Assembly (NCBI GenBank): GCA_964533285.1
Contig: CAZHLT010000277.1
Span: 1-54,243, forward strand
Length of the DNA stretch: 54,243 nt
Direction: 5' to 3'
Source: an uncultured Conexibacteraceae bacterium
GTDB lineage: Bacteria; Actinomycetota; Thermoleophilia; Solirubrobacterales; 70-9
Shown here: positions 4,938 through 44,274 of the stretch, one piece after another
How positions within the stretch are numbered: the first letter of the stretch is position 1
Layout of the letters: each line of letters starts with the position of its first letter
Made by a program: the position numbers and the translations under genes
Notes under the pieces: model-generated
Told to the model about the DNA's origin: nothing
The model's input: only the letters and a program-made list of their open reading frames with translations
Databases searched by the model: none

Positions 4938-4988
4938 CGGGAGTCAGTGGTGGATATCTACGGGATATCGACCAGCTACAATGCCAGC

Positions 4989-5252
4989 ATGGCAAAGGCG
5001 ACGAAGGTGCTTGTGACGATTCCCGACGACCTGCTGGAGCGGATCGACCGCGAAACCGAGATTCTCGGCCAGACCCGCAGCGACTTCCTCCAAGAGGCAG
5101 CGCGGCGCCGGCTCGGTTGGCCCGACCCCCTCGCGGTCGACGCGGCGCTACTGCGCGGCCGCGCCGCCCTGGCCGGGCTGGGCAGCTTCGAGTCGGCCGA
5201 GGTGATCCGCTCCCAGCGGGAGGAGCGCGATGCCCGCGATCAGCGTCGTTAG
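4989..5252 (+). CDS. vapB: Ribbon-helix-helix (CopG/VapB-type) antitoxin
   Basis: MAKATKVLVTIPDDLLERIDRETEILGQTRSDFLQEAARRRL. It overlaps the PIN gene start. Confidence 0.7.
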   Translation: MAKATKVLVTIPDDLLERIDRETEILGQTRSDFLQEAARRRLGWPDPLAVDAALLRGRAALAGLGSFESAEVIRSQREERDARDQRR

Positions 5253-5682
5253 CGACGCCAACATCGTCCTCAAGTGGTTTCACTCCGAGGGCGAGGAGGA
5301 AGTCGAGCCCGCCCGCGCTCTGCTCGACGCCCACAAGGAACGGACCGTGGCGCTCTCGGTTCTCGACCTGACCGCCTATGAGGTCGGCAACGCCCTGATG
5401 CGGGGCCGGGCCGGCGCCAGCGCCGAGCAGGCGGCGACGGTGATCGAAGCCCTGGCCGAGGTCTGCCCGGCGCTGCGCCCGAGCCCCGAGGAGATGCGGG
5501 AGGCGAGCGAGCTGGCCGGGCGCCACGACCTCACTCTCTACGACGCCGCCTACGCGGCGGTTGCCCAAAGTCGCTCCGCCGAGCTGGTGACCCTGGACAG
5601 TGCCCTGCTGGGCGCCAAGCTCGGCCGCCGGCCGAGCGAGCTGGCCGACGCCATCGCCAAGGCCGAGGAGGAGCAGCGATGA
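5230..5682 (+). CDS. vapC: PIN-domain toxin VapC
   Basis: 150 aa. SDANIVLKWF...LDLTAYEVGNAL...LYDAAYAAVAQSRSAELVTLD carries the PIN acidic-residue pattern. Confidence 0.8.
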   Translation: MPAISVVSDANIVLKWFHSEGEEEVEPARALLDAHKERTVALSVLDLTAYEVGNALMRGRAGASAEQAATVIEALAEVCPALRPSPEEMREASELAGRHDLTLYDAAYAAVAQSRSAELVTLDSALLGAKLGRRPSELADAIAKAEEEQR

Positions 5683-5764: not shown

Positions 5765-6367
5765 TCAGGGGGCAAGGAGCGCGGCCAGCTCGGGACCGAG
5801 GGCGGGAAGGCGCTCGGACTCGCCGGCGCGCAGGTGGACGGAGGCGAGCGCGAGCGCGCCCTCCAGGCCGAAGCGCTGCCGGACCGCACTCCCCCGCCCG
5901 GCCCCGCCGGCGGGACGCGGCGGCCGGGTGCGGGCGAGGAGGGAAGCGAGGCGGTCGAGCAGCGCCGCGCGGGCGTGGGCGACGGCGGGCACGGCGGCGA
6001 GCTCGGGACCGAGCAGGCAGGAGAAGCTCGGCTCGGCGGCGAGGAAGCGCAGGGCGGCGTCGAGGGGAGCGGCGATCGAAGCGGAGCCGGAGCGGTGAAG
6101 CGGCGGCCGGCAGGCGCCGGCGAGGACGTCGAGGAGCGAGTCGGCGAAGGTCTGGAAGGCGGCGAGCAGGCAGGCGTCGAGGTCGGCGAAGTGGCGGTAG
6201 AAGGTCGTCGAGGAGACACCGGCGCGGCGGGCGATCAGGTAGGCGGTGGTGTCCGCGTAGCCGCGCTCGGCGAGCGTCGCGGCGGCGGCGGTCAGCAGGC
6301 GCCAGCGCTGGCTCTCGGCGAGGATCGCGGCGGCTGGGCGGCGGTCCTGCGCGCGGCGGGCGCCCAC
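5765..6367 (-). CDS. TetR/AcrR-family transcriptional regulator
   Basis: HTH segment LLTAAAATLAERGYADTTAYLIARRAGVSSTTFYRHFADLDACLLAAF. Confidence 0.8.
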   Translation of the reverse strand: MGARRAQDRRPAAAILAESQRWRLLTAAAATLAERGYADTTAYLIARRAGVSSTTFYRHFADLDACLLAAFQTFADSLLDVLAGACRPPLHRSGSASIAAPLDAALRFLAAEPSFSCLLGPELAAVPAVAHARAALLDRLASLLARTRPPRPAGGAGRGSAVRQRFGLEGALALASVHLRAGESERLPALGPELAALLAP

Positions 6368-6369
6368 GC

Positions 6370-6768
6370 TCAGCCCCAGGGCGCGGCGATCAGGATCGCC
6401 CAGCGGCCTGCCTCGTTGGCGAGGACGAGGGTGGCGGTGCTGGAGCGCTCGAAGCGCTCGCCGGCGGCGGAGCCGGTGCGCCGCCAGTACTGGGTGGCGA
6501 GGGCGAGCTGGCCGGCGAGGACGGTGCGGCCGAGGCGGATCGCGAGCCGGACCTCGGAGCTGGTGAGCTGGTCGAGGACGGCGCGGATCGCGGCGGCGCC
6601 AGCGACCTCGGTGCCGTCGGCGGTCAGCAGGCGGGCGTGGGCGCCGAAGCAGGCGGCGGCCACGGCGGCGTCGCCGCGCATCAGCGCAGCGGCGAAGAGC
6701 GCCGCCAGCTCGGCGGCCCCGGCATCGCCAGCGGGCGCGCGGGTGGGATGCGGGTTGGCGTCAGGCAC
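6370..6768 (-). CDS. SnoaL-like / NTF2-fold (DUF4440-type) protein
   Basis: ..LFAAALMRGDAAVAAACFGAHARLLTADGTEVAGAAAIRAVLDQL...ATLVLANEAGRWAILIAAPWG. Start placed at GTG 6768 (GTGCCTGA overlap with the upstream TetR stop). The ORF is open to 6822. Confidence 0.55.
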   Translation of the reverse strand: MPDANPHPTRAPAGDAGAAELAALFAAALMRGDAAVAAACFGAHARLLTADGTEVAGAAAIRAVLDQLTSSEVRLAIRLGRTVLAGQLALATQYWRRTGSAAGERFERSSTATLVLANEAGRWAILIAAPWG

Positions 6769-7447
6769 GGCGCGCGGACGCCGCGAGGGGGTCGAGGCGG
6801 GCGGCGTCGAGCTCGGCCTCACCGCGGTAAGGGGCGAGAACGAACTCGGCGAGCGGCTCGATCAGCGAATGGAGCTCGGAGCGGCGCCCGGCGGCAAGGC
6901 GGCGGGCGAGCACCGAGAGGACCCCGCTGACGAGCAGGTCCTCGGTGGAGCCCGAGCGCTCGCGCCCCGGCGGGGCGGCCGCGCGCAGGCGGGCGGCGAG
7001 GAGGTCGGAGAAGGCGAGCTGAGGCGCAACTCCGTCGGGACCAGCAGCGAAGGCGTCGATCAGGCAGACGTGAGCCAGCGCCGGGTTGGCGGCAAGCCAG
7101 CCGACGAGGGCGAGGAGAGCGGCGCGGACGCGCCGGGGGAAGCTCGGCCCGGCGGCGATGCAGGCCTCTTCGATCTCGGCCTCGGCCGCTTCGAAGCCGC
7201 CGCGCAGCAGGGCGCGGAAGGCGTCGTCCTTGTTCTCGAAGTACTCGTAGAAGCCGCTGCGGGACGTGCGGGCGGCCTTGACGACGTGGTCGATTGTGAT
7301 CTTGCGGTAGCCGTGCTGTGCTGTCGCCTCGGCGAAGGCGGCGAGGAAGCGCTCGCGGCGGAAGCTGTCGAGCACCTCGCGGCTGAGCAGCGGGCGCCGG
7401 GATGGCTGCGGCGGAACCGAAGCGCGCCCTGACGGCTCGGATCTCAC
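6761..7447 (-). CDS. TetR-family transcriptional regulator
   Basis: FLAAFAEATAQHGYRKITIDHVVKAARTSRSGFYEYFENKDDAF. Start placed at GTG 7447. The ORF-track start 7696 adds a low-complexity P/R-rich extension that does not look real. Confidence 0.75.
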   Translation of the reverse strand: MRSEPSGRASVPPQPSRRPLLSREVLDSFRRERFLAAFAEATAQHGYRKITIDHVVKAARTSRSGFYEYFENKDDAFRALLRGGFEAAEAEIEEACIAAGPSFPRRVRAALLALVGWLAANPALAHVCLIDAFAAGPDGVAPQLAFSDLLAARLRAAAPPGRERSGSTEDLLVSGVLSVLARRLAAGRRSELHSLIEPLAEFVLAPYRGEAELDAARLDPLAASARRA

Positions 7448-7862: not shown

Positions 7863-10760
7863 TCAGCGATGGGAGGCGCCGCTGCGGCCGGAGGGCCTGG
7901 CCGTGCGCTTGGCCTTCTTCCCGCAGCCGTTGGCGATCGTCGGTTCGGTGTCGTAGGTCTTGTTGTTGTGGGCGGTGAGGCGCAGGACGGCACGCTGGGG
8001 CGAGCGGCAGAGATTCTGCGAGTTTTCCAGCAGGCCTTCCTTGCCGCCTTTCAGTTCGAGCACGAATCTCGAAACCGGCGCGTCGGGCACCTGGAAGAAA
8101 GTCGTGCGGATGCGCGCGTTGCGCTTCGGCGTCACCGTATCGACGGCGCCGACCAGCTCGATATGGATCTGGCCACGCAGGTCGGCGACGATGTCGGGCA
8201 GTTCTCGTTCGCCGCCATTGGCACGGAAGTAGACCTTCCCTTCCAGCGGCTCGTCCAACAGGGGCGTCCACGCTTTCGCCCGGCCCAGCACCGAGATCTT
8301 CGGGCACTTTTCTTCGGCGAACTGCGGCCGCGTGCAGGGGTTGCCGACGTGGAACTGGTCGATGATCTCGGAGTGCGGCAGGATGACCGCGGCCCTGGTG
8401 ATGTTCGAGAAGTCGCCCTTGCTCGGGTAGGTGAGAACCGACTTCAGCGCCGGGTGCTTGGAGCGGGTGGTGCCACCCTTGAACGACAGCTTGAGGCTGG
8501 GCCTGAAGTCGAGCGCCTTGCAGGCGCCGACCTGGAAGGGCGAAGCCACTGGCGCCAGCGCCGTGGGCGAGAGCAGCAAGCCCGAGATGCTCATCGGCTC
8601 GCAGTTGGTCGGGTTCAAGGTGAACTCGGGCCGGTCGGTGTCGATCGAGATCGAGCGCACCTTCAGCGGGATGCCCCGCAGGATCGTCGGCAGGGGGTCG
8701 GAGCTGACGTGGATCTGGGCCGTGTGGGGGTCGACGTCGGCCTTCGCCCGCACCACGACGGTGCCGAGGTCGAAGGGGCCGGCGACCGCCGGGGTGATCA
8801 CCGCGATGCTTATCGGAGCGCCCTTGTAGGGACCGGCGAGGTAGGCCGTACCCTGGACGTGGTAGGGGGTCGGGCCGGCGCCGGCGCCGACGTCAACGGT
8901 GCCGAGCTTCGAGGCGGCCGGACAGCTGGACGATGCCTGCTCGGCGGCCCCGTCCTTGCCCGACGCCGCGGCCAAGGCAGCGTCGGGGCAATAGGCGATG
9001 CCGGCGAGCTTGCCGGTCAGGCCCGGGGGAAGGTCGAGCTCCAGCCCCGAGAGCACGCCGCTGGCGTCGGGGCGGGAGGCGTTGACGACGAGCGGGCTGT
9101 AGGAGCCGGCGATCGGCGCGACCGTGCCGGCTTCGAAGGAGGAGTCGAACTCATTTGGGGACGGGCAGGGGGAGCCGCCGGGTCCCGAGGTGATTTGGAA
9201 TGACGATGTCTTGGTGACGATCTCCTCTGGTGCCGGGTTGTCGGGATCGGCAGCCGACCAGGATGAGAGCTTCGAGACGATCCCATAGGTGCCACAGGCA
9301 CGCGGGGTGATCAGCGGCGCCCGCGGGCCCGCCTTGAAGCGGAGCCGCAGGGAGCTGAACGGGATCTGAGGGTTGTTGTCGAAGGTCGCCGTGAGCCGGC
9401 CGGTCCGCGGATCGGCATCGATCCGGCCGGGCAGCTTCAGCACCGTGCCCGTGACCGGATCGTCGACCGCGATGTACAGCGAGAGCAGGGTGCCGAACGG
9501 GTTGTCACCCTGCGCGCCAAGGTAGACCGAGCCGAGGAGCGAGTCCTTCAGCAACGGCGTCCTCACCTCGACCGTGCCGATCCTGGCCCGCTCGGGGCAC
9601 CGGTCGGGCTCGGGCGTGAACCTGGGGTCGGCTCCGCCTTCGATCAGGCCGATCTGCTGCCCGCTGCAGGCCCCCAACCCGTCCGCCGAGCTCGGGTTGA
9701 CCGACATGCCCTCGGGCAGGGTGACCGTAACGCGCTTCAGATGGGCTTCGGCGGCGGCATCGGGATCGGTGAGGCCGAGCGTCGGCATCGTCAGGTCTAC
9801 GTCGAGGCCGGCCGGGCTGTCAGCCTGCCGCGTGGTCGGCGTCAGCGACATGCTCGGATCGAAGGAGGCCCCCTCACAACCGTCGACGGCGGTCGGGTTG
9901 CCGTTCGTGTCGATGCTGAAGGCGGCCGTCTTGACCTCGTCGGGGTTCTCCCAGGAGCGGGCCCGCAGGCGCGTCTCGAGCACGCCGGCGGCGCAGTCGG
10001 CCGGATTGGAGAGGAAGGCTTTGGGCTCTTCCCCCGGGCCGAGGCCGGGGTTGGTGCAGAGGGGGTCCGCGGTGGAGGCGCAGTTGACGTTGTCGCCCAT
10101 GCCAGCGTCGCTCGAGGTGCCGCGATCGGCGTCGTGAGATGGATCGCCGGGGACGCCCCAGATCGTCACCCTGGCGCCGGTGGTGAAGAGGCCCTGGGAG
10201 ACGTCGGTAGCGGAGATGGTGATCCCGTAGTCCGACCCTGCCCGCAACGAGGCGAGCAACAGAACCGGCTGCGAGTTGATGTTGAAGCCGAGCGCCGCCG
10301 GGTAGCCGGGCGGCGGCTCCAGGTTGTACACGGCGGCGATGTTCGCGCTGAAGAGGTTGACGCCGGGCGCGGCCGGCTGCATCAGGCGCGCCGTCCCGAC
10401 CTGCGAGCTGGCAGGGCATTTCGCTACGACCGTGCTCCCGTAGAGATCGCGCATCGGGCACTGGCGCGCGATCGCACCGGGATTGCCGATGAACCCGGGC
10501 GGCAGCTCGACGTCGACTTTCTTCATCGAGCCATCCGGGAGAAGGAGGTCGGCGGCGGTGAGTTCGAAGGTCGTCGTCGCCGAGTCCGGGTGGCCGCCGG
10601 CCCGGGTGAAGGAGGCCCCGGCCTGATCGAAGACGCCGCCGGTGAAGCTGACGACGCCGAATTCCGCCCGCGCCGGCCCCGCCGCCAGCACCAGCAGGCA
10701 GCCGGTCACCATCGTCAGCGCGGCCAGAACGCGCCACGCCCCTGCCAGGGTGTTGCTCAT
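7863..10760 (-). CDS. Large secreted protein (965 aa) built from a repeated Cys-containing module; function unknown
   Basis: ATG 10760 preceded by GAGGAG. Signal peptide MSNTLAGAWRVLAALTMVTGCLLVLAAGPARA. Recurrent module LPPGxxGNP...CPxxSxxGT...TPLLxxxLxGxVY...LxxxxxG seen at least 3-4 times. Basic tail CGKKAKRTARPSGRSGASHR. Confidence 0.8.
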   Translation of the reverse strand: MSNTLAGAWRVLAALTMVTGCLLVLAAGPARAEFGVVSFTGGVFDQAGASFTRAGGHPDSATTTFELTAADLLLPDGSMKKVDVELPPGFIGNPGAIARQCPMRDLYGSTVVAKCPASSQVGTARLMQPAAPGVNLFSANIAAVYNLEPPPGYPAALGFNINSQPVLLLASLRAGSDYGITISATDVSQGLFTTGARVTIWGVPGDPSHDADRGTSSDAGMGDNVNCASTADPLCTNPGLGPGEEPKAFLSNPADCAAGVLETRLRARSWENPDEVKTAAFSIDTNGNPTAVDGCEGASFDPSMSLTPTTRQADSPAGLDVDLTMPTLGLTDPDAAAEAHLKRVTVTLPEGMSVNPSSADGLGACSGQQIGLIEGGADPRFTPEPDRCPERARIGTVEVRTPLLKDSLLGSVYLGAQGDNPFGTLLSLYIAVDDPVTGTVLKLPGRIDADPRTGRLTATFDNNPQIPFSSLRLRFKAGPRAPLITPRACGTYGIVSKLSSWSAADPDNPAPEEIVTKTSSFQITSGPGGSPCPSPNEFDSSFEAGTVAPIAGSYSPLVVNASRPDASGVLSGLELDLPPGLTGKLAGIAYCPDAALAAASGKDGAAEQASSSCPAASKLGTVDVGAGAGPTPYHVQGTAYLAGPYKGAPISIAVITPAVAGPFDLGTVVVRAKADVDPHTAQIHVSSDPLPTILRGIPLKVRSISIDTDRPEFTLNPTNCEPMSISGLLLSPTALAPVASPFQVGACKALDFRPSLKLSFKGGTTRSKHPALKSVLTYPSKGDFSNITRAAVILPHSEIIDQFHVGNPCTRPQFAEEKCPKISVLGRAKAWTPLLDEPLEGKVYFRANGGERELPDIVADLRGQIHIELVGAVDTVTPKRNARIRTTFFQVPDAPVSRFVLELKGGKEGLLENSQNLCRSPQRAVLRLTAHNNKTYDTEPTIANGCGKKAKRTARPSGRSGASHR

Positions 10761-10807
10761 CGGTCGGTTCTCCTCGGGTCGATTGGTCGGTGCTCGGTGG
10801 AGGGCGA

Positions 10808-13800
10808 TCATGCGGCCACCCCCCGCAGGCAGCGTTTCTGCGCCGCGCGGGCCGCCCGCAGCCGGTGCCGCGCCTTTCGTCGGTGCCCGGCGGCGGCCCG
10901 GCGCAGGTCCCGGGTCGCATTCCGCACCCGCCGCTGCTCGGCGGCGCAAGCGGGCGGCGTCGATTGACCCCCGTCCCTCGGGGCGAGCGAGCCGATTGCG
11001 GGCCGCCGCGACGGCTGAGTCGGGTTGCCCTGGCAGAAATCTCCGCTGCAGGGCGGCAAAGAGTATTCGGCGAATCCGCCCCCGACGCGCGCGTCGTAGA
11101 CGTCGGTCAGCTGATCGACGTCGGAGCCGACCAACTGCTGCCGGCTGAGGAAGAAGACGTCGTTTCCGCTCGGGGTGGCGTCGAGGAAGTCGGCGTCGGT
11201 GGTGCCCGTACCGGAGGAGATCAGCGAGACATCGCCGTGCGACCAGCGGTAGACGTCGGCGCGCCCGTTGACGTCGGCGCCGACCAGGGCCTGGGGAGTG
11301 CTGAAGTAGGCGGCCGAGCCGTCGGGGGCGAGGTTCCCCGGCAGAGCGCCCACGCTCTCGCCGGAGGTGCGGCTGAAGCCAGGGGCGAGCAGCGAGTCGC
11401 CGGCCGCGAGCTCGCCGTGCTCCGGACAGGAGAGGCAGGTGAGCTCGTCGGCTTCGGCGTCGTAGAGGTAGGTCTCGGCGCAGCGACCTTCCTGGTTGGC
11501 GTGCTCGAGGCCTCCTGCGTTTTCAAACGGCGGACAGGCGGCCGGGTTGGTGTTGTCGTAGCTGGTCAGCGGTGCCCGTGAGGTGAAGAGGAGGTGGCCA
11601 CCGTCCGGCGCGGTCCGGGTGACCCGGCGCCGATAGCCGGGACTCGACGTCCAGTTGCGGGCGTCGGCCACCTCGTCTGAGCGACCGCTGAGGTCGGGGG
11701 CGAGGGTCGCGATGAACCTGGTAGTCCCTTCTTCCCAGAGGTAGAGGTTGGGCTCGCCGCGCGTCGCGCCGGGCGCGAGGTCGCCGCCGGCGGCGAAGTA
11801 GACCCGCGAGAGGTCGTCGCTGGCGCCGAGGACGCCGTAGACGTCGGCCCCGGCCGGGTCGGCGGTGGTGAGGTCGTCGAGAGCCCCCGAGTCGACGTCG
11901 TAGAGGTAGAGGTCGCGACCCTGTGGCGGGGTCGTGTAGAGCTCAACGAATCCGTATTCGCCGCTCGTACAGCTGAGGGGCGGCGGTACAGGGACGTAGC
12001 TGGTCGAATCGTCGGTCAGCTTCTCGCAGCTGTAGAAGAGCACCTTGGAGCCATGCTCGGTCTCGGCGGCGACGAAGGTCGCCGGCAGCGGGCCGTCGGG
12101 ATCGGGGGACGTCGCCTGGCTGGCGCTGATGCGCGTGCTGGCATCGTCGGCCGTCGAGGCCGTCCCCTGGTCGTCGCGAACGTAGAGCTGGCCGGCGTTC
12201 GAGGAGCGAGTGGTCGCCAAGCCGGGTTCGATCGCGTGGAAGAAGAGGCGCCGGCCGTCGGCCGAGATCGCGCCCTTGACCGAGCCGACGGTCGGGTTGG
12301 AGCCGGCGACCGAGCCGAGAGGCGCCGGCGCTTCGGGGAGCGGGCCTTCGCCGTCGGGGTCGACGATGCCGACGAGGCGGGTCTCGCCGTCGACCCACTG
12401 GTACGTGTTGATCAGGCCGGTGACCGGGTCGGCGGTTTGCGGGACCCCCTCTGACGTGTAGTAGAGATGGCTCCAGTCACTCGATGCACCGCCGAAGAAG
12501 TAGCTCTTCTTGACGCGAGTAGCCGGCCCCGGCGGCCCGAGCTCATTGGGGTTGATCTGCGCATAGCCGCCGTCCGAGTTGTCGCGGACGTAGAGGTGGT
12601 CGGTCAGAGGGGTTGCGCCGGGTGACAGCGCGGCGTGGCTGGTAACCACGAGCTTGTCGAGATCAGGAGAGAATCCGAGCAGACTGTAGGCACTCGTCCC
12701 CGACGGGATCGGCGGATCGATCGCCTCCGAAGACCAGCCGCTGACCGGGTCGCGATCGGCGAGCAGCGGCGTCAGCCAGCCGGCGTTCGCGCCGGGAACG
12801 GAGAACGTCGCCGCGAAGGCGACGCGGTTGCCCGACGGGTCGACCGCCTGCGCGCCCCAGGAGCCCATGTCGATGCCGTTCTTCTGGTCGGGGGAGACCT
12901 TCTCGTATCCGCGACCCGGAGGAGGCGGCGGCAGCGTCTCGCCGGTGCGGAAGGTCTCGACCCCACCGACGGTCTGGCCCGCGCCGTTCTCGGCGACGAC
13001 GCGGAAGTAGTAGCGCGTGCCCGGGCTCAGCCCGGTCACCAGTTGCGCCACGAAGGCGAGCTCGGTGCCTGAGCCAGCGTCCGCGTCCTGGCTCGCCGGG
13101 AAGCTCGCGGTGGCGGCGGGTGGCAGGGCTGGGTCGGTTGAGTACTCGATCCAGTAGGAGGTCTGGTCGTGCTGGGGGTCGACCTGGCCGCCAAGCCAAG
13201 CCGCGGTGTCGGTGCGGCTGCCGGCGGCGAGGGTGACCACGCGCGGCGGCGCCGGGAAGGTGTTGAAGACGGCGGTGGCGCTCGTCCCGATGCCGCCGTT
13301 GAACGCTTTCGAGGCGACCAGACGCAGCTCGTATTCGGTGTTCGGCTCGAGCCCGGTCGCGGTCTGGATCACCGAGTTGTTCGAGCCGATCGGCCCGGCG
13401 TCGGCGCCGGCGACCGGGACCCGGGTCCACTCGGTCGCGCCAACCGGCCGGTACTCGAACCGGTAGGAGGTGGTGAGGCCGGTGGGGTCGACGTGACCGT
13501 GGAAGCTGGCGCCGGTCGCGGTGATCGCGTCGACCGGAGTCGGGTCGAGGGTGGCGATCGGGAGGATCGGCGCGGCGGCGGTGTAGACGCGGGCGGCGCC
13601 GCTCCCAGGCGGGCTGGTGGAGTCGAGGTGGATCCGCCCCGTGGCCCCGGTCACCGCCAAGCCGAGGACGCCAAGCCGCAGCCCGGCGCAGGCGAAGTGC
13701 GCGTCGAGCAGGTTGCCCGCCGAGTCGAACTCGAGCACTCGCCGCTCTTCGACCGACGGCGCGCCGGAGGGGCAGCTGGCGGTGGCGGCGGCCGGGGTCG

Positions 13801-14893
13801 CCCGGGTGACGAGCACGTTGCCGCTGACCGGGTCGACGGCGATGTCGGTCGGGGTGGTGGCGGACGTCCCGCCGGCGAAGGTCGGCGCGGCGAAGAGTGC
13901 GGCGTCCAGGCTCGAGCCGGAGGGGGCGAACTTTTGCACGCGGAAGTTGGCCGACTGCTCGACCGTGAAGATCGCGCCCGAGGAGTTGACGGCGACACGG
14001 TTGGTTCCGGTCCCGAGCTGCCCGATCGCAGGCCCGGAGGCGGCCGCGACCTTGCAGTCGGCCGCCACAGTGCAGATCTCGAAGCCGGTGCCGCCGCCGG
14101 TGAGCACGTCGTAGCCGAAGGTCCTGACGAAGGCGCCCGAGGGTGCGAATTCCTGCACGCGGCGGTTGCCCGGGTCGGCGACGACGACGTTGCCGGCGTT
14201 GGCTGGGCCTGGCGGCACGACCGCCGGATACCCATTGAAGGTCGAGGCAAAGGAACCGCCGCTGGCCCCGGACGTGCCGACCTTGCAGCCGGGGGCAACG
14301 GTGTCCGCAGCCGTGCAGACCTCGGTCGTGGTACCGCCCGTCGGATTGAGGACGTCACGCCCCCACATCAGCTGGAAATTGCCTGCCGCGTCGAAGCGCT
14401 GGACCCGGAGGTTGGTCTGCTCGGTGACGTAGACGTCGCCGGTGGCCTGGTCCACGGCGATCCCCTGTGGCGAGTTGAACTCGCCCCCCGCGGCGCCGGT
14501 GACCCCGGCCTTGCAGTCGCTCGCGACGGTGCAGATCTCGAAGCCGGTGCCGCCGCCGGTGATCACGTCTTTGCCCCAGGCGCGGATGAAGGTGCCGTCG
14601 GCGCTGAACTGCTGGATGCGGTTGTTGGAGCCGTCGACGACGTAGATGTCGCCGGGATCCGCCGCACCCGCGCCGGTCTCGTTGACGGCTATGCCGCGCG
14701 GCGCGTTGAAAAGGCCGCCGTCGGCGGCATCGCCGCTCGGGTTCGTGCTGGTCGGATTGCCGAAGGAGGAGACGACCGACTTGGGCGCGGCGCCGGCTGG
14801 CACAGCTGCCAGCGAAAGCGCGAGGACGGCGGCAATCAGGATTGCAGCAGCTGCGCGCTGGACCAGGGCCACAAGACGTGCCTTTGCCTTCAC
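10808..14893 (-). CDS. Large secreted NHL-repeat / FN3-like / TolB-like beta-propeller protein (1361 aa)
   Basis: GTG 14893 after GAGGAG. Signal peptide ..AAVLALSLAAVPAGA. NHL blades (FNAPRGIAVN..YVVDGSNNRIQQF; FNSPQGIAVD..RVQRF). Two FN3-like units (TSYRFEYRP.., TSYWIEYS..YYFRVVAENGAG). PD40-like repeats (ISADGRRLFF, APDGGHLLFTS, LAPDGSAAYFS). 34-nt exact intragenic repeat at 14070-14103 and 14529-14562. Confidence 0.85.
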   Translation of the reverse strand: MKAKARLVALVQRAAAAILIAAVLALSLAAVPAGAAPKSVVSSFGNPTSTNPSGDAADGGLFNAPRGIAVNETGAGAADPGDIYVVDGSNNRIQQFSADGTFIRAWGKDVITGGGTGFEICTVASDCKAGVTGAAGGEFNSPQGIAVDQATGDVYVTEQTNLRVQRFDAAGNFQLMWGRDVLNPTGGTTTEVCTAADTVAPGCKVGTSGASGGSFASTFNGYPAVVPPGPANAGNVVVADPGNRRVQEFAPSGAFVRTFGYDVLTGGGTGFEICTVAADCKVAAASGPAIGQLGTGTNRVAVNSSGAIFTVEQSANFRVQKFAPSGSSLDAALFAAPTFAGGTSATTPTDIAVDPVSGNVLVTRATPAAATASCPSGAPSVEERRVLEFDSAGNLLDAHFACAGLRLGVLGLAVTGATGRIHLDSTSPPGSGAARVYTAAAPILPIATLDPTPVDAITATGASFHGHVDPTGLTTSYRFEYRPVGATEWTRVPVAGADAGPIGSNNSVIQTATGLEPNTEYELRLVASKAFNGGIGTSATAVFNTFPAPPRVVTLAAGSRTDTAAWLGGQVDPQHDQTSYWIEYSTDPALPPAATASFPASQDADAGSGTELAFVAQLVTGLSPGTRYYFRVVAENGAGQTVGGVETFRTGETLPPPPPGRGYEKVSPDQKNGIDMGSWGAQAVDPSGNRVAFAATFSVPGANAGWLTPLLADRDPVSGWSSEAIDPPIPSGTSAYSLLGFSPDLDKLVVTSHAALSPGATPLTDHLYVRDNSDGGYAQINPNELGPPGPATRVKKSYFFGGASSDWSHLYYTSEGVPQTADPVTGLINTYQWVDGETRLVGIVDPDGEGPLPEAPAPLGSVAGSNPTVGSVKGAISADGRRLFFHAIEPGLATTRSSNAGQLYVRDDQGTASTADDASTRISASQATSPDPDGPLPATFVAAETEHGSKVLFYSCEKLTDDSTSYVPVPPPLSCTSGEYGFVELYTTPPQGRDLYLYDVDSGALDDLTTADPAGADVYGVLGASDDLSRVYFAAGGDLAPGATRGEPNLYLWEEGTTRFIATLAPDLSGRSDEVADARNWTSSPGYRRRVTRTAPDGGHLLFTSRAPLTSYDNTNPAACPPFENAGGLEHANQEGRCAETYLYDAEADELTCLSCPEHGELAAGDSLLAPGFSRTSGESVGALPGNLAPDGSAAYFSTPQALVGADVNGRADVYRWSHGDVSLISSGTGTTDADFLDATPSGNDVFFLSRQQLVGSDVDQLTDVYDARVGGGFAEYSLPPCSGDFCQGNPTQPSRRPAIGSLAPRDGGQSTPPACAAEQRRVRNATRDLRRAAAGHRRKARHRLRAARAAQKRCLRGVAA

Positions 14894-15003
14894 GGAATCT
14901 CCTCTGTCCTACGCCCCAAGCCGCGAACGACTCCCTGCCGGTCCCGTGTCGGAGCGCTGTTTGCAGTAACCCATTGCTCGCCTCCCTGGCGAACGACAGC
15001 AGC

Positions 15004-15025: not shown

Positions 15026-15038
15026 GCAACCAGGATCG

Positions 15039-15076
15039 TTTGCAGGGCGAGGGAAGACGCGAAAAGTCCCTGCAAA
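15039..15076 (-). terminator. Hairpin (9-bp stem tttgcaggg/ccctgcaaa, 20-nt loop) downstream of the TetR gene ending at 15168
   Basis: 15039-15047 and 15068-15076 are exact reverse complements. There is no clear U-tract, so terminator function is uncertain. Confidence 0.3.
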
Positions 15077-15167
15077 TAATCGTCAAGCAGGCAGCTCTGC
15101 AAGCGCCGGAGCCGCGAGCGAGCGGGTCGACAGCGAGGGACGGCGAGAGGGCTCGCGACGACGCGAG

Positions 15168-15851
15168 CTAGGACTCGCCGCGGGCGAGGCGCACCGCTTC
15201 CTCGCGCCCGTAGTAGGGCGCGAGGAAGAGCTCGAGCAGGCCGGGGGCGAGGGCGGCCAACTCCTCTCCCCTGCCCTCCTTGACCTCGGTGACGATCAGG
15301 GCGACGAGGCCGCCGAGGAGGCCGTCGGCGACGGCGCGGGAGGGCCCGCGCACGGCGGGCGGTGGGGGCTCGCCGGCGGTGAGGGCGGCGAAGAGGCGGC
15401 CCAGCAGCTCGCCGTAGCGGGCCGCCGGCTCGCCGCCGGCGCCCGGCGCGGCGATCAGGGCGAAGCGGGCGAGGTCGGGGTTGGCGGCGAAGGTCTGCAG
15501 GAGGGCCGTGAGCTGGGCGCGGAGCTGCTCGGGCCACTCCGCCGTACCCTGGGCGGCGTCGCGCAGCGAGCTCTCGAGGAAGGAGGCAAGCTCGTCGTAG
15601 GCGGCGGCGAAGCACTCTGGCTTGCCCGGGAAGTAGGCGTAGAAGGTGCGCCGCGAGACACCGGCGGCGGCGGAGATGTCGGTGATCGTCGCCTCGTGGT
15701 AGCCGCGCTCGGCGACGGCGGCGATCGTGCCGGCGATGAGGCGGCCCCGCTGGTTCTGCTCGACGAAGGAGCGCGGCAGGCCGTGGCGCCCGGGCGGCAG
15801 ACGAGAGAGGCCCGGCGCGGAGTCCTCCCCTGGCGGCTCGCGCTTGCTCAC
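15168..15851 (-). CDS. TetR-family transcriptional regulator
   Basis: LIAGTIAAVAERGYHEATITDISAAAGVSRRTFYAYFPGKPECF. Start placed at GTG 15851 (VSKREPPGE..). The 383-aa ORF-track version has an R/P-rich shadow extension. Confidence 0.8.
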   Translation of the reverse strand: MSKREPPGEDSAPGLSRLPPGRHGLPRSFVEQNQRGRLIAGTIAAVAERGYHEATITDISAAAGVSRRTFYAYFPGKPECFAAAYDELASFLESSLRDAAQGTAEWPEQLRAQLTALLQTFAANPDLARFALIAAPGAGGEPAARYGELLGRLFAALTAGEPPPPAVRGPSRAVADGLLGGLVALIVTEVKEGRGEELAALAPGLLELFLAPYYGREEAVRLARGES

Positions 15852-15925: not shown

Positions 15926-16585
15926 TCAGCGCTCCTCGGCGGGGGGTGGCGGCGGGATCCGCAGCTCGGCCATCGCCGCCTCGTGGCCGAGGTAGGGGCG
16001 CACAGCGATGCACATCAGCTCGGGGACGAAGTCGCGGGCGGAGACGGCGCCGGCGCCGGCCCGCAGCTGTTTGAAGAGGAAGTCGTAGATCGCGCCGAGA
16101 ATGCCTTCGGCCGTACTGCGCGAGAGCGAGTGGGGGTCCGCGGCCTCGGAGCGGCCCTCGTCGATCAGATCGACGATGCGCCGCACATAGCGGTCGCGGT
16201 GGGCGGCGGCGAGAGGGCCGGCGGCAAGCATCTGGACCATGTCGAAGCGGGTCTCGGTCGGGCGCTCGGCGACGTAGTCGGCGGCGGCGTAGGCGGCGGC
16301 GCGAAGCCGCGGGCGCCAAGCGCCGGGTGGTGGCAGGGCGGCGAAGACGACGTGGTCGAATTCGGCGATGTTGGCGAGGTAGATGCGGGTGCAGAGGTCC
16401 CGCGGGTCAGCGGCGGGCGGGTCGAGGGCATCGGGGTCGGCGTCGGCGCGCTCCAGCGCCGCCGCGACGGTGAGCTGCTCGAAGCCGCCCTCGAGCACCA
16501 GCTCCATCGTCGCGCGGCGCAGGCGGGCGGCCGCCGGCGAGGCGGCGGGGGCAAAGGGGCCGCGGCGATGGTCGGGCTCAGGCAC
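15926..16585 (-). CDS. TetR-like paralog with a degenerate, proline/aspartate-rich helix-turn-helix region
   Basis: Aligns over its full length with the next gene. Where the paralog has VEAIVARAGVAREDFDRRFADKRD, this one has VAAALERADADPDALDPPAADPRD. C-terminus ELMCIAVRPYLGHEAAMAELRIPPP is identical to the paralog. Confidence 0.65.
   Translation of the reverse strand: MPEPDHRRGPFAPAASPAAARLRRATMELVLEGGFEQLTVAAALERADADPDALDPPAADPRDLCTRIYLANIAEFDHVVFAALPPPGAWRPRLRAAAYAAADYVAERPTETRFDMVQMLAAGPLAAAHRDRYVRRIVDLIDEGRSEAADPHSLSRSTAEGILGAIYDFLFKQLRAGAGAVSARDFVPELMCIAVRPYLGHEAAMAELRIPPPPPAEER
15948..16027. repeat. 80-nt direct repeat, copy 1 (3' end of TetR-like gene)
   Basis: ggcggcgggatccgcagctcggccatcgccgcctcgtggccgaggtaggggcgcacAgcgatgcacatcagctcggggac. 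One mismatch to 16597-16676. Confidence 0.9.
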
Positions 16586-17240
16586 CGGCCACCTCAGGCG
16601 GCGGGATCCGCAGCTCGGCCATCGCCGCCTCGTGGCCGAGGTAGGGGCGCACGGCGATGCACATCAGCTCGGGGACCAGCTCGGTCGCGATGACGGCCTC
16701 AGCGCCCTCGGCGAGCCGTTTCATCAGCAGCCCGTAGATGGACCCGAGGGCGCCCTCGGCGACGCTGCGGGAAAGCGCGTCGGGGTGCGCCGTCTCGAAG
16801 CGGCCGGCGTCGATCAGGTCGACGATCCGCTGCAGGTAGCGGTCGCGGACCGCCTGGGCCATCTCCCCTCCCTCGCGCATCGCGATCTCGCCGTAGCGGG
16901 TCTCCGCCGGGTGGGTGGCGATATAGGCGGCAGCGGCGTAGGCGGCGGCGCGCAGCGCATCGCGCCAGGCGGGCGCGGCGAGATAGGCGCCGAGGACGGC
17001 GCGGTCGAAATCGGCGATGTTGGCCTCGTAGGCTCGGTCGCAGCAGTCCCGCTTGTCGGCGAAGCGGCGATCGAAGTCCTCGCGGGCGACGCCGGCGCGG
17101 GCGACGATCGCCTCGACGTCGACGGCGCCGTAGCCGCGCTCGAGGACGAGCTCGATCGCGGCCTGGCGCAGCCGCTCCCAGGTCTCGTCGAGGACCGGTG
17201 AGGGCAGCGGGCGCAGCCGGGGTCGGCCGGTCACCGGCAC
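16578..17240 (-). CDS. TetR-like transcriptional regulator (tandem paralog)
   Basis: LRQAAIELVLERGYGAVDVEAIVARAGVAREDFDRRFADKRDCC. 8-nt overlap with the downstream paralog. Confidence 0.7.
   Translation of the reverse strand: MPVTGRPRLRPLPSPVLDETWERLRQAAIELVLERGYGAVDVEAIVARAGVAREDFDRRFADKRDCCDRAYEANIADFDRAVLGAYLAAPAWRDALRAAAYAAAAYIATHPAETRYGEIAMREGGEMAQAVRDRYLQRIVDLIDAGRFETAHPDALSRSVAEGALGSIYGLLMKRLAEGAEAVIATELVPELMCIAVRPYLGHEAAMAELRIPPPEVAGA
16597..16676. repeat. 80-nt direct repeat, copy 2
   Basis: 79/80 identical to 15948-16027, while the rest of the two genes is much more diverged. Confidence 0.9.
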
Positions 17241-17265: not shown

Positions 17266-17928
17266 CTAGGCGGTGGCGGCGAGCAGCTGCGCGGTCGCGC
17301 TGTGACCGAGGTAGGGCTCGAGCACGATCTCGGCGAGCTCGGGCAGCAGGCCCACCCCGTCGCCGATCTCGCCGAGGACGAGCCGCTGCTGCAGGAACCA
17401 GGCGGCGCCGCCGAGGATCGCGGTCTCCAGTGTGCCCGGCAGCTCGGCGGCGGCCGGGTTCGCCTCGCGCAGGAGCCGCAGCTCGGGCGCGAGGCGCTCC
17501 AGGGTGGCGTCGTAGCGGGCGCGCGCCTCGGTGCCGGCGGTCTGGGCCTCGACCAGGACGAGGCGGGCGCGCAGCGGCTCGGCGGCGAGGAGGGAGAGCA
17601 GGGCGCGCAAGGCGGCGCAGACCCGTTCGGGCTGCGGCGCGTCGGGCGGGACCCGGGCGGCGATCTGCTCGCCGGCGTCGGAGAGCGCGCTCTCGTAGGC
17701 GGCGAGGAAGCAGTCCTCCTTGCCGGCGAAGAGGGCGTAGAAGCTGCCGACGCCGACCTTGGCGGCGGCGACGATGTGGTCGACGGTGGTGGCGGTGTAG
17801 CCGCGCTTGGCGAAGACGCCGGTGGCGGCCTCGATGACGCGCTGGCGCTGGTGGGCGGCCATCACCTCCCGCGGCAGCGGCTCGCGGCCGACCGGCGCGC
17901 TGGCGAGGTGCTCGGGCAGGGAGGCCAT
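17266..17928 (-). CDS. TetR-family transcriptional regulator
   Basis: Start at internal ATG 17928 (MASLPEHL..). VIEAATGVFAKRGYTATTVDHIVAAAKVGVGSFYALFAGKEDCF. Confidence 0.8.
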   Translation of the reverse strand: MASLPEHLASAPVGREPLPREVMAAHQRQRVIEAATGVFAKRGYTATTVDHIVAAAKVGVGSFYALFAGKEDCFLAAYESALSDAGEQIAARVPPDAPQPERVCAALRALLSLLAAEPLRARLVLVEAQTAGTEARARYDATLERLAPELRLLREANPAAAELPGTLETAILGGAAWFLQQRLVLGEIGDGVGLLPELAEIVLEPYLGHSATAQLLAATA

Positions 17929-18052: not shown

Positions 18053-18733
18053 ATGGTCGGGCGGGGCCAAAGCCGTGCGGGCCGGGCGGGAAGCGAGCGC
18101 GGCGGCCCGGAACGGGGCCGCGGGCGCAGCGGCGATGAGACGGCCGCGAGCGTGCGGGCGCGGATCATGACGGCGATGCTCGAAGCCTGCGGCGAGAAGG
18201 GATACCGGGCGGTCGCGGTGCGCGACGTGATCGAGCGCTACGGCGGCTACCGCAGCCAGTTCTACGGGCACTTCGCGAGCAAGGCCGACTGCTACGCCGC
18301 GGCCTACGAGACGGAAGCCGAGCGGCTCTACGAGGCGCTCGCCGCGCAGGCCGCCGGCGAGGGGAGCTGGCGGGAGCGGCTGGAGCGGGTGCTGGCAGGG
18401 CTGGGGCGCTTCGCCTGCGAGCGTCCGGCGCTGGCGCGCGGGCTGCTCGTCGAGGTCCAGGTCGCCCGCGGGCGGGCGCTGGAGATGCACCGGGAAGTTT
18501 TCGAGCGCCTCACCCGCGCTATGGACAGCGCGCGCCGCGAGACCAGGTCTCGCCACTCTCCACCTCCGATGACAGCGCTCTTCATGGTAAGCGCAATCGA
18601 GAGCTCTGTCACCTCGGCGCTCCTGCGCTCCGAGCCGCAGTCCTTCGCCGCCGCGGTGCCCGAGCTGGCGGAGATAGTCGCCTCGGCCTACTGCGGCGAA
18701 GAGGCGGGCGAGCGGCGATCGAGCGCGGCGTGA
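18053..18733 (+). CDS. TetR-family transcriptional regulator
   Basis: IMTAMLEACGEKGYRAVAVRDVIERYGGYRSQFYGHFASKADCY. Divergent from the 17928 gene. Confidence 0.75.
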   Translation: MVGRGQSRAGRAGSERGGPERGRGRSGDETAASVRARIMTAMLEACGEKGYRAVAVRDVIERYGGYRSQFYGHFASKADCYAAAYETEAERLYEALAAQAAGEGSWRERLERVLAGLGRFACERPALARGLLVEVQVARGRALEMHREVFERLTRAMDSARRETRSRHSPPPMTALFMVSAIESSVTSALLRSEPQSFAAAVPELAEIVASAYCGEEAGERRSSAA

Positions 18734-19554: not shown

Positions 19555-20721
19555 ATGATTCGAGCCGCAGGGACGACCGCGCTTGTCTGGCTGCTGACGC
19601 TGGGCGTCTGCGCGTCGGCGGCGAGCGCCGAGCCGCTCTCGATGACGTTCACCGAATCGCGCGCCAACGTCGGGGTGCAGCTTTCTGACGCCGCCCTGTT
19701 CGAAGCGCCCGATACAGCTGCGTTCGAAGGACAGCTCGACCCCGGGAGCGGCTTGATCGTGGAAGGCGATCTGGCGGTCCCGGATTTCTCGACCTTCATC
19801 ACCGAGCCTCTCGATGCTGACGTCACCGTCGATTTCGAGATCGGGATCATCACGGGAAGCTTCACCCAGGCGAGCGGCGCACTCCTCTTGACGGGCGAAG
19901 CGGGCGGGACGCTGAAGGCGAACGGAGAGGAATGCATCCTTTCGACGACCCCCTCCGTCCTGACCCTCTCGACGCTCGGAAGCTCCGGCGGCAGCACTCC
20001 GCGCTCCGGGGCGCCGTTCGCCCACGGGCTGACCGGGGCGGGGGCGATCGCCGGGCAATGGAACGACATGACCGCGACCCCGGTCGACCCGGGACCCGGA
20101 GGGGACACCGCCGCTTGCGAAACCGTCGACGATCGCATCGGCGGGCCGGGGGGCGTCTGGCTGCGCCAGGAAGGCGACGTCGTGCCGCCCTCGGCACCGC
20201 AGCTGAGCGGCACCGATCCGGCTTCGCCGAACCCGAGTGGGACCCCGCGAGTCCTCGGCGCAGCCGAGCCGGGATCGACGGTGCGCGTCTATGCGGGCTC
20301 GAACTGCGTTGGCGCACCGGTCGCCACCGCAAGCGCGGCCAAGCTTGGCTCTCCCGGCATCTCCGTCGAAGTCGCGGAAGGCGTCACCGCCGTCTTCTCG
20401 GCGAGCGCCACCGATGCAGCCGGCAATACCTCCGCCTGCTCGGCGCCGATCTCATACACGCGGGTGAAGTCGACGAGCGGACCGAAGCCGAGCCCGGCGT
20501 GCGTCGTCCCGAAGCTGGTCGGCAAGACGCTGAAGGCGGCGAAGAGGCGGATCAAAGCGGCGGGCTGCAAGCTTGGCGAGGTCCGCGGGCCGCGCCCGCC
20601 GGACCGCCGGGTGCCGCTCGTCGTCAAGTCGTCGAACCCCGGGGCGGGAGCGAGACCGGCCGACGGCGAGGTCGACGTCAGGCTCGGGCCAAAGCGGGGC
20701 AGAGCCCCCAGGAGCAGCTAG
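19555..20721 (+). CDS. Secreted protein with Ig-like domain and C-terminal PASTA domain
   Basis: Signal peptide MIRAAGTTALVWLLTLGVCASAASA. Ig-like segment PRVLGAAEPGSTVRVYAGSNCVGAPVATASA...ATDAAGNTSACSAPISY. PASTA-like VVPKLVGKTLKAAKRRIKAAGCKLGEV...VVKSSNPGAGARPADGEVDVRLG. Confidence 0.75.
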   Translation: MIRAAGTTALVWLLTLGVCASAASAEPLSMTFTESRANVGVQLSDAALFEAPDTAAFEGQLDPGSGLIVEGDLAVPDFSTFITEPLDADVTVDFEIGIITGSFTQASGALLLTGEAGGTLKANGEECILSTTPSVLTLSTLGSSGGSTPRSGAPFAHGLTGAGAIAGQWNDMTATPVDPGPGGDTAACETVDDRIGGPGGVWLRQEGDVVPPSAPQLSGTDPASPNPSGTPRVLGAAEPGSTVRVYAGSNCVGAPVATASAAKLGSPGISVEVAEGVTAVFSASATDAAGNTSACSAPISYTRVKSTSGPKPSPACVVPKLVGKTLKAAKRRIKAAGCKLGEVRGPRPPDRRVPLVVKSSNPGAGARPADGEVDVRLGPKRGRAPRSS

Positions 20722-24114: not shown

Positions 24115-24124
24115 AGCGCTTCGC

Positions 24125-25291: not shown

Positions 25292-25566
25292 CTGCCGCCC
25301 CCACGGGGCACGATCATCCCCGTCTCCGCCAGTCGCGCCAGCGCCGTCCCGTAGCCGTCGAGCTGGGCCGACTCGACCCCCACGGCGCGACAGGCCGCCT
25401 CCGGGCTCTCATGCTCGCCGAGGCACTCGACGACCTCGCGCAGCCGCGGGCTCTTGAGGAATGACAGGCGGCGGGTGCCGAAATGGTAGGCGAGGGCGCC
25501 GAAGCCCTCCGTCCGCAGTGCCACCTGGGGATGCAGGGCCCAAGGGCCCTGCAGAGGAGTCGTCAT
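25288..25566 (-). CDS. mftB: Mycofactocin precursor-binding chaperone MftB (PqqD-like RRE)
   Basis: 92 aa. WALHPQVALRTEGFGALAYHFGTRRLSFLKSPRLREVV. ATGA overlap with mftC. Confidence 0.85.
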   Translation of the reverse strand: MTTPLQGPWALHPQVALRTEGFGALAYHFGTRRLSFLKSPRLREVVECLGEHESPEAACRAVGVESAQLDGYGTALARLAETGMIVPRGGGR

Positions 25567-25573
25567 CGCCGAC

Positions 25574-25693
25574 TCAGTAGACGCCGCACATGCCGTCGAT
25601 CGAGACGTCCTCGACCAGGAGGTCGACCTCGACCAACTGCTCCTCGGCGGCCTCGGTCTGCGGCGGGGACGGGTCGTGGGAAAGCTGGGGCAT
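25574..25693 (-). CDS. mftA: Mycofactocin precursor peptide MftA (39 aa)
   Basis: Not in the ORF track. My translation MPQLSHDPSPPQTEAAEEQLVEVDLLVEDVSIDGMCGVY* has the canonical IDGMCGVY C-terminus. GAGGAGG lies 5 nt upstream of the ATG. It ends 7 nt before mftB. Confidence 0.9.
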   Translation of the reverse strand: MPQLSHDPSPPQTEAAEEQLVEVDLLVEDVSIDGMCGVY

Positions 25694-25753
25694 GAGAACC
25701 TCCTCGATCGGTTACCGCTTCCGGATGGTATTTATAACACCCAGTGCAAGAAT

Positions 25754-36924: not shown

Positions 36925-36958
36925 CGCTGTCAGGCTCCTCGGGCGCCGGTCCGGTCGC

Positions 36959-42609: not shown

Positions 42610-42624
42610 TTACGGACCGTGAGC

Positions 42625-44270: not shown

Positions 44271-44274
44271 TGAA

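Follow-up and report, generated by a model that had tools for sequence, protein, structure and literature searches.

Mycobacterial HBHA, an exported protein with a Lys-rich C-terminus, is retained on the cell surface by cationic, non-covalent interactions, and cationic regions of Lactobacillus S-layer proteins bind wall polymers. Solirubrobacterales are Actinomycetota that abound in soil; very few of them have been cultured, and to our knowledge almost nothing has been established about their cell surface. Among described surface systems, CLIPPER (formerly DUF11) is a stalk domain of fibrillar adhesins (bioRxiv 10.1101/2025.04.25.650565). The csc clusters of Lactobacillus plantarum and its relatives (CscA-D, WxL) comprise paralogous operons whose exported products have been proposed to assemble into non-covalent surface complexes (PMC1534035). 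In this study, we analyzed two adjacent genes, A and B, on a 54,243-nt stretch of an uncultured Conexibacteraceae bacterium (GenBank assembly GCA_964533285.1, contig CAZHLT010000277.1, positions 1 to 54,243; the window). Three elements of the A-B cassette are new: a large domain family that no curated library covers, an obligate partner with a propeller, and a polybasic C-terminus that is conserved. Based on sequence comparisons, we propose, at slightly less than an even chance, that A and B form a co-transcribed cassette for a heteromeric, Sec-exported complex that binds at the cell surface in the manner of an adhesin or receptor.

The strongest result of the analysis is the pairing of A with B. 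To count it, we used the B genes with at least 3.5 kb of upstream DNA in the best 80, partly overlapping, of at least 584 confirmed stretches in a scan of one genome per GTDB species. For 90 of these 100 B genes, the immediate upstream neighbor is an A-core homologue on the same strand, and the ten exceptions are mostly the second B of an A-B-B arrangement. A-B-A-B arrays are common among these loci. In three neighborhoods with called genes, the A-like gene ends 4 nt inside the B-like start, and the outer genes differ. Moreover, two fusions, P0363 (1744 aa) and P0284 (2035 aa), each known from one contig only, join an A core, a polybasic stretch, an FN3 unit, and a B core in a single chain. 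No frame at the junction of P0363 contains a hidden signal peptide, an extra start, or an interrupted gene; therefore, a read-through artefact was rejected and the fusion was treated as genuine. A previous reading of the window, made from the sequence alone, had called for a survey of whether the two genes co-occur, and the possibility that they are usually unlinked can now be dismissed.

The two families also diverge in parallel. Across 39 intact cassettes, the identity matrices of A and B are correlated (r=0.55, Mantel p=0.001), and the nearest relative lies in the same cassette for both proteins in 18 of the 39. Four pairs of cassettes within one locus have a median identity of only ~31% for A and ~48% for B. 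From the matrix correlation and the low identity within loci, the cassette appears to be an old unit whose genes duplicate and diverge together.

In the window, both genes lie on the minus strand, which is to be added to the sequence-only reading; its coordinates and protein lengths were right, as were its GAGGAG ribosome-binding sites for both genes, and the intergenic gap is 47 nt rather than the 48 nt it gave. A search of this gap for terminator-like sites returned none, and no additional copies of A or B were found elsewhere in the window. The GC content at third codon positions (GC3) is 0.90 in both open reading frames (ORFs), typical of real genes, and that of the window as a whole is 70%. 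The exact sequences of both proteins are present in a public collection, with NCBI as the source and without a name.

An exhaustive HMMER scan with B over 1.84 billion cluster representatives (50%-identity clusters) returned 7,564 related representatives at E<=1e-3 and 2,741 at E<=1e-30, overwhelmingly from soil metagenomes. The few names given by the sources are Solirubrobacterales, Thermoleophilia, and unclassified Actinobacteria or Actinomycetota metagenome-assembled genomes (MAGs). Similarly, the best 80 stretches of the genome scan all belong to Solirubrobacterales, Conexibacter(aceae), or unclassified Actinomycetes/Actinomycetota MAGs, and one 2.77-Mb chromosome (OY969094.1) carries at least six B genes among the survey loci. 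Judged by these matches, the B family is apparently huge and so far nearly confined to Solirubrobacterales. Its members include proteins of 2,000-7,161 aa with up to 15 matched stretches, and some relatives also contain PF01345 or are labeled as TIGR01451 repeat proteins. For one of the giant relatives (P0242, P0388, and others, 3,400-7,167 aa), the sole annotation is that of a hypothetical protein in an 'Actinobacteria bacterium' MAG. A cassette is also present in a cultured type strain, Conexibacter arvalis, whose B homologue is 39% identical over its full length and has a basic tail; therefore, the predictions made here are testable. In this strain (GCA_014199525.1, L084 589-1861), genes for a DsbA-like protein and VKOR are located ~5 kb upstream of the cassette and adjoin CopC and SCO1/SenC, which bears on the predicted disulfides, and the proximity may be coincidental. 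A phage or mobile-element origin was rejected: A and B match no phage or defence models in PHROGs or PADLOC, the gene lies on the chromosome in many MAGs with complete chromosomes, and the surroundings farther out differ. A literature search for propeller, PD40, or NHL proteins of Solirubrobacterales or Conexibacter found nothing relevant.

Protein B is built from all-beta modules of ~200-270 aa. The sequence-only reading had seen three or four copies of a module that it could not name; there are exactly four (M1-M4), and they belong to no named family. When the family alignment was cut into four segments and these were compared with each other profile to profile, five of the six pairs were homologous at 94-99% probability, and the M3-M4 pair was weak (10.7%). 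Each module has in common an LPxG...NP motif, a cysteine pair of the form Cys...CPxxSxxGT, and a second cysteine pair. The invariant or nearly invariant cysteines thus form eight regular pairs, two per module, and the partners listed in Table 1 are proposed from this regularity. Hydrophobic windows occur only at the N-terminus and in one buried strand. Conservation is polarized along the protein, with mean values in the alignment of 0.45 for M1, 0.60 for M2, 0.70 for M3, and 0.65 for M4. Furthermore, N-terminal parts have been gained, lost, or swapped in both families (NHL, FN3, Ig, or none); B relatives occur with N-terminal NHL, FN3, or Ig additions, and A homologues share their C-terminal core.

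B had zero matches in Pfam, NCBIfam, PHROGs, and PADLOC, and none to CLIPPER/DUF11 PF01345 at E<=0.1. Searches of PDB sequences with phmmer (single sequence) and with hmmsearch (56-sequence profile) returned nothing meaningful. An AlphaFold2 model of full-length B built with the family alignment is all-beta, with a predicted local distance difference test (pLDDT) score of 89.3 and a predicted template modeling (pTM) score of 0.81; M2 alone was modeled with a pLDDT of 89.7 and a pTM of 0.87. Fold searches of the PDB and BFVD with full-length B returned only long multi-Ig proteins (integrin alpha, a mastigoneme, alpha-2-macroglobulin, and a DUF11 protein in Foldseek), which were set aside as functional clues because they are generic, with template modeling (TM) scores of 0.05-0.25. 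A thioester, complement-like reading was also rejected, as there is no C-x-[ED]-Q motif. For M2, the partial matches are small Ig-like sandwiches, several of them CnaA-like: BslA, Cna, CNM N2, the C-domains of BspA and AgI/II, YcnI, and CLIPPER (9ifr). Their probabilities are 0.95-1.0, with target TM scores of 0.5-0.59 for small domains; the matches to 9ifr (probability 0.95, target TM 0.51, E=0.04) and to Cna 1amx (probability 0.95, target TM 0.38) are weak. Thus, of the searches that the sequence-only reading had proposed for the module, those of family libraries were empty, and those of structures returned a known adhesin fold only as a generic Ig-like/CnaA-like sandwich with weak scores. 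In these models, the CnaA-like and Ig-like partial matches would point to a surface stalk as the fold class, and they assign no function.

The same anatomy bears on the idea that A and B are structural parts of the envelope, such as an S-layer-like lattice, a sheath, or the subunits of a polymerizing fiber, and do not bind ligands. An all-beta, multi-Ig protein with cysteine pairs consistent with disulfides would suit such a role, the mature N-terminal strand of B is conserved, the generic fold matches include a donor-strand-complemented Saf pilus structure, and basic regions attach some S-layer proteins to wall polymers, as in Lactobacillus. However, a genome can hold many deeply divergent cassettes, as on the 2.77-Mb chromosome and in the tandem pairs described above, the heads are variable, repressor genes are adjacent, and neither SLH nor another lattice-anchor domain was found. 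We regard a purely structural role as very unlikely.

Protein A consists of an N-terminal head region, a conserved core, and a basic tail. Its signal peptide, already recognized by the sequence-only reading, is followed by no other hydrophobic segment; the windows with Kyte-Doolittle (KD) values of at least 1.6 begin at aa 5-20, and the basic n-region and the AGA motif are read from the sequence. The head passes the Pfam gathering thresholds for NHL (PF01436; 57.3 bits against a cut-off of 20, E=1e-15, two significant stretches) and for fn3 (PF00041; 36.3 bits against a cut-off of 25, two stretches, the best at aa 549-640), and an FN3-like Pur_ac_phosph_N match covers aa 575-650. These results bear out the propeller of about five blades and the two FN3-like units described earlier; blade motifs lie at aa 83-96, 154-167, and 236-249, and the blades number about five to six. 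The repeated DCK inserts are three Cys-loops, two of the form GGGTGFEICTVA[S/A]DCK (aa 113-128 and 266-281) and a divergent copy (aa 186-204). They may be peculiar to the window copy of A, because they are missing from the three closest syntenic homologues aligned.

In contrast to the heads, the C-terminal 700 aa are the family-defining part of A, for which 303 relatives were found. Many relatives of ~700-770 aa consist of a signal peptide and the core, and others of ~1,200 aa carry NHL, SGL-type, or FN3 heads. The core ends in YDARVGGGF..PCSGDxCQG (family form YDARVGGGF...PCxGDxCQ), and the polybasic tail follows. PD40 (PF07676) is matched by 25 of 42 aligned core homologues (best E=4.3e-11), whereas the core of the window protein (aa 655-1361) matches neither PF07676 nor any other Pfam family at E<=0.01; a profile of the core returned nothing meaningful from PDB sequences. 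The label of a TolB/PD40-like propeller given by the sequence-only reading is therefore supported at the family level, and the window protein itself stays below Pfam significance. By its relatives, the core appears to be a divergent PD40 propeller and not TolB.

Both proteins end in polybasic tails. In the A family (120 sequences), the median charge of the last 40 aa is +16, and 98% of the tails have at least +4. In the B family (266 sequences), the median net charge of the last 25 aa is +6 to +7, with at least +4 in 86-89%, whereas the bodies of B average about -0.5 per 25 aa; past the last conserved cysteine, B homologues have a median of 14 residues and a median net charge of +6.5. The tails differ freely in sequence and length while they keep their charge. 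The start of the tail is fixed, after the last cysteine in B and after the CxGDxCQ motif in A. Many A tails hold a basic C-x(8-12)-C loop, which in the window copy is a longer C-x38-C, and some A tails and giant B relatives end instead in a short basic beta-like segment. As the charge is kept family-wide, the basic tails are apparently conserved in both families, with selection acting on charge rather than sequence. The Arg/Lys-rich ends noted earlier are thus conserved as composition. The cysteines assigned to these tails stand for A (Cys1316 and Cys1355). For B, Cys946 is nearly invariant, is the counterpart of the invariant Cys918, and fits the two-pair pattern of the other three modules; therefore, it is the last structural cysteine, and the tail is the 19 residues after it.

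Consistent with the sequence-only reading, recognizable sorting signals are missing. LPxTG is absent from A and B and was likewise not found within the final 60 residues of 11 giant relatives, neither A nor B has a C-terminal hydrophobic helix, and no SLH or other lattice anchor was found in Pfam or NCBIfam. Of the layout of a sortase substrate, only the basic element is present. B contains a lipobox-like VTGC at aa 18-21; it was rejected as a lipoprotein because this motif is not conserved in homologues, whereas the AxA site is.

With neither a covalent nor a lipid anchor, A and B might be released as soluble scavenging or binding proteins, or as enzymes built on NHL/SGL-type and PD40 propellers, with tails that bind soil polyanions (clay, humic matter, extracellular DNA, or a polysaccharide matrix) rather than their own envelope. 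The soil origin of the family would fit, as would the SGL/gluconolactonase-type (PF08450) or NHL propellers of some A relatives, which can be catalytic, and control by TetR proteins is typical of substrate-responsive functions. However, no catalytic family is above threshold in A or B, the conserved residues of the A core include no obvious catalytic set, the inspected neighborhoods have no consistent transporter or catabolic genes, and the combination of a conserved base with a variable head is more suggestive of a protein displayed on a tether. Release into the soil is thus unlikely in our assessment.

Alternatively, the polybasic C-terminus could be a processing or sorting element, that is, a propeptide or linker cut by a protease specific for basic residues, or a signal for a putative export or assembly factor. 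In the fusions, the polybasic stretch separates the A part from the B part, and a cut there would yield the two proteins again; the free variation of the tails in sequence and length, with their charge kept, also speaks for this reading. Neither a conserved protease nor a dedicated secretion gene accompanies the cassette in the inspected neighborhoods, however, and the tails begin at a fixed structural point yet show no conserved cleavage motif. We therefore consider such a role distinctly unlikely.

The pair is embedded among paralogous regulators, as described earlier: seven mutually similar TetR-like genes (t1-t7; 25-59% full-length identity) flank it, two downstream and five upstream. A hidden Markov model (HMM) of this subfamily gave 112 matches of at least 80 bits in 46 of the 80 related loci, with up to eight (E<=1e-5) per locus, a count that covers the survey loci alone. 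The N-terminal helix-turn-helix region of t4 looks truncated or degenerate. A small DUF4440/SnoaL-like gene lies between the two paralogues downstream of B, and the order TetR, DUF4440/SnoaL, TetR is repeated in a Logan contig with an identical B protein. Upstream of A, a less GC-rich gap of 274 nt contains a 14-nt inverted repeat, a possible operator for the neighboring TetR proteins.

Collectively, we favor the cell-surface complex, in which A and B would be exported through Sec, cleaved by signal peptidase I, and folded oxidatively, with the paired cysteines forming disulfides. Its base would consist of the PD40-type core of A and M3 and M4 of B, touching each other. The disordered Lys/Arg-rich tails would attach this base, without covalent bonds, to anionic polymers or lipids of the envelope, in place of the absent sortase or lipid anchor. 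The variable N-terminal heads (NHL and FN3 of A; module 1 or the extra N-terminal domains of B) would face outward and bind ligands that differ between paralogous cassettes, and the adjacent TetR paralogues would turn individual cassettes on in response to small molecules. The sequence-only proposal of a dedicated two-gene surface or extracellular system is thus supported by the linkage, the two fusions, the family-wide tails, and the absence of sortase and lipoprotein signals.

Several points weigh against this reading. M2 has no strong Foldseek match (best E=7.5e-4, query TM<=0.37), and neither an adhesive nor a catalytic domain was recognized in B with Pfam and NCBIfam, which leaves no ligand to propose. 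Co-duplication alone, with no physical contact, would also lead A and B to diverge in parallel, and as the survey loci are the 80 best and partly overlap, the counts are not fully independent. In both fusions, the polybasic stretch lies inside the chain, a position that suits a linker or a site of processing no less than an anchor. At 29 of the 80 related loci, there is no TetR of the subfamily at E<=1e-5, and the regulator link is therefore frequent, not obligatory. Finally, for every member of the family, we infer export, disulfides, complex formation, and surface retention.

The features of the locus and of the remaining window are collected in Table 1. Elsewhere in the window, there are a mycofactocin-type cluster, an ORF with a weak coding signal, a pair of ORFs in a VapBC-type toxin-antitoxin layout, mobile-element-like genes with a lower GC content (0.66-0.68) around 44-48 kb, and a branched-chain-type ABC transporter that adjoins hydantoinase/oxoprolinase subunits and appears unrelated to A-B.

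Table 1. Features of the A-B locus and of the remaining window (positions in the window; aa, amino acids)
Feature	Position	Strand	Remarks
Gene A	10808..14893	minus	GTG start, 1361 aa; signal peptide, NHL propeller, two FN3, PD40-type core, polybasic tail
Ribosome-binding site of A	14899..14904	minus	GAGGAG, 5 nt before GTG
A signal peptide	14789..14893	minus	aa 1-35 (MKAKARL...AVPAGA then AP); sole hydrophobic segment of A
A NHL-type beta-propeller	13559..14731	minus	aa ~55-445, about 5-6 blades; PF01436
Cys-loop insert 1	14510..14557	minus	aa 113-128, GGGTGFEICTVASDCK
Cys-loop insert 2, divergent	14282..14338	minus	aa 186-204, GGTTTEVCTAADTVAPGCK
Cys-loop insert 3	14051..14098	minus	aa 266-281, GGGTGFEICTVAADCK
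A FN3-like units (two)	12938..13540	minus	aa ~452-652; fn3, 2 stretches, best aa 549-640
A conserved core	11024..12931	minus	aa 655-1290, divergent PD40/TolB-type propeller region; 303 homologues; kept in A2/A4
A polybasic tail	10811..10960	minus	aa 1312-1361; last 50 aa with 16 K+R and 2 D+E; Cys1316...Cys1355
Gene B	7863..10760	minus	ATG start, 965 aa; signal peptide, four homologous modules, polybasic tail
Ribosome-binding site of B	10770..10775	minus	GAGGAG, 9 nt before ATG, inside the 47-nt gap
B signal peptide	10668..10760	minus	aa 1-31 (...GPARA then EFG); AxA then [ADE]FG kept in 55 homologues
B module 1 (M1)	9864..10667	minus	aa 32-299, most variable; AGxHP and WGVPxDxSHDxxRG motifs; Cys101-115, Cys256-295
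B module 2 (M2)	9156..9863	minus	aa 300-535; Cys365-388, Cys489-532
B module 3 (M3)	8526..9155	minus	aa 536-745, most conserved; YLAGPYKGAP, PAVAGPFDLG; Cys591-613, Cys720-747
B module 4 (M4)	7923..8525	minus	aa 746-946; Cys809-819, Cys918-946
B polybasic tail	7866..7922	minus	aa 947-965, GKKAKRTARPSGRSGASHR; predicted disordered; pLDDT below 50 at aa 958-965
Inverted repeat, candidate operator	15034..15081		14-nt arms GATCGTTTGCAGGG / CCCTGCAAATAATC, 86% complementary, 20-nt spacer
TetR paralogue t1	5765..6367	minus	PF00440, subfamily alignment
DUF4440/SnoaL-like gene	6370..6681		small
TetR paralogue t2	6761..7375	minus	first gene downstream of B; subfamily alignment
TetR paralogue t3	15168..15851	minus	first gene upstream of A; subfamily alignment
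TetR-like paralogue t4	15926..16507	minus	no Pfam TetR_N match; 59% identical to t5
TetR paralogue t5	16578..17240	minus	subfamily alignment
TetR paralogue t6	17266..17928	minus	subfamily alignment
TetR paralogue t7	18152..18733	plus	subfamily alignment
PIN-domain toxin-antitoxin region	4947..5682		VapBC-type layout
101-aa ORF	4947..5252	plus	ahead of and overlapping the PIN-domain ORF
PIN-domain ORF	5230..5682	plus	
ORF with weak coding signal	19555..20721		weak bacterial Ig (Big_6, E=6e-6) and PASTA (E=3e-5) matches; GC3 0.84
Mycofactocin-type cluster	22148..26335		
Short-chain dehydrogenase	22148..22942	minus	mycofactocin-type cluster
FMN-dependent dehydrogenase	22939..24084	minus	mycofactocin-type cluster
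Radical-SAM/SPASM enzyme	24125..25291	minus	mycofactocin-type cluster
78-aa ORF	25288..25524	minus	overlaps the start of the radical-SAM/SPASM enzyme
MftR-type TetR	25754..26335	plus	TetR_C_14 'MftR C-terminal domain', E=1.7e-34
Branched-chain-type ABC transporter and hydantoinase/oxoprolinase	32206..40760		binding protein, two permeases; A and B subunits
Mobile-element-like genes	41134..51718		
DDE transposase	41134..42483		
AAA ATPase	42625..43803		
Tyrosine integrase	47089..48300		
ParB-like protein	50210..51718		

With its 7,564 representatives, the B module ranks among the larger protein families that lack a curated model, and at minimum two new family models are justified, one for the B module and one for the A core. 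The strict pairing with a PD40-type core gives a concrete handle on the function of B. If the tails anchor the proteins, they would offer monoderm bacteria a simple, sortase-independent way to retain large proteins, and if the TetR paralogues gate the cassettes, the system would be a model for surface variation in soil bacteria. In its widest form, the reading would be that of an undescribed surface display of Solirubrobacterales, with tens of paralogous propeller/Ig-stalk heterodimers per genome, each with a new, sorting-independent type of polybasic C-terminal anchor and TetR switches of its own, and with a domain family that no curated library contains (more than 7,500 clusters). We hold this full picture to be doubtful; if true, it would amount to a set of receptors or adhesins for the environment that can be programmed. 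So far, no long-standing question depends on the A-B cassette.

Compared with known systems, A resembles TolB/PD40 proteins in the PF07676 matches of its core homologues, and some sources name its relatives 'TolB family protein'. In contrast to TolB, A has a core of about 650 aa, in which CxSC and CxGDxCQ motifs of its own are conserved, followed by a basic tail; A is also multi-copy per genome, whereas TolB is a single-copy housekeeping protein. The named A relatives come from Actinomycetota lineages, and inspection of the window and of five neighborhoods revealed no tol/pal genes. The integrin alpha ectodomain (1jv2_A and relatives) supplied the top Foldseek matches of full-length B, and its propeller head on Ig-like thigh and calf legs has the same propeller-then-Ig order as the A-B fusions; as the TM scores are only 0.1-0.17, this is an architectural analogy and not homology. 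With HBHA and the S-layer proteins, A and B share a Lys/Arg-rich terminal region on an exported protein, which in those proteins binds anionic polymers and in A and B is predicted to do so. Unlike in those proteins, the tails of A and B are short, of low complexity, and placed behind large Ig or propeller bodies.

The csc/WxL clusters may serve as the nearest organizational analogue. Similar to the A-B cassettes, they occur as many paralogous operons per genome, consist only of new families exported by Sec, and are restricted to a lineage and niche (PMC1534035). In contrast, their families are unrelated to A and B, they have four genes rather than two, and they are under catabolite control, whereas the candidate regulators of A-B are TetR paralogues. 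WxL and CscA-D domains are not matched in A or B by Pfam, the anchor candidate of A-B is the polybasic tail, and the analogy is conceptual only.

The nearest kind of system is the fibrillar adhesin. As in Cna, CNM, the AgI/II-BspA C-domains, and CLIPPER/DUF11 (PF01345), B combines a signal peptide with tandem Ig-like modules and a variable N-terminal and conserved C-terminal end, and part of each B module superposes, with weak scores, on the domains of these adhesins. Of the features that define fibrillar adhesins (Monzon et al., PMC8286594), a known anchor (LPxTG/sortase, lipobox, SLH, or LysM) is absent from A and B, and in place of a recognized adhesive domain there are candidate heads, namely module 1 of B and the NHL/FN3 part of A. 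The tandem Ig-like stalk described there is present in B as four homologous all-beta modules with partial Ig-like/CnaA-like fold matches. Unlike the described stalk families, B has no Pfam match, and its module, with two conserved cysteine pairs, is roughly double a CnaA-like domain in size; unlike any fibrillar adhesin in this comparison, it has an obligate partner gene that encodes a PD40-type propeller.

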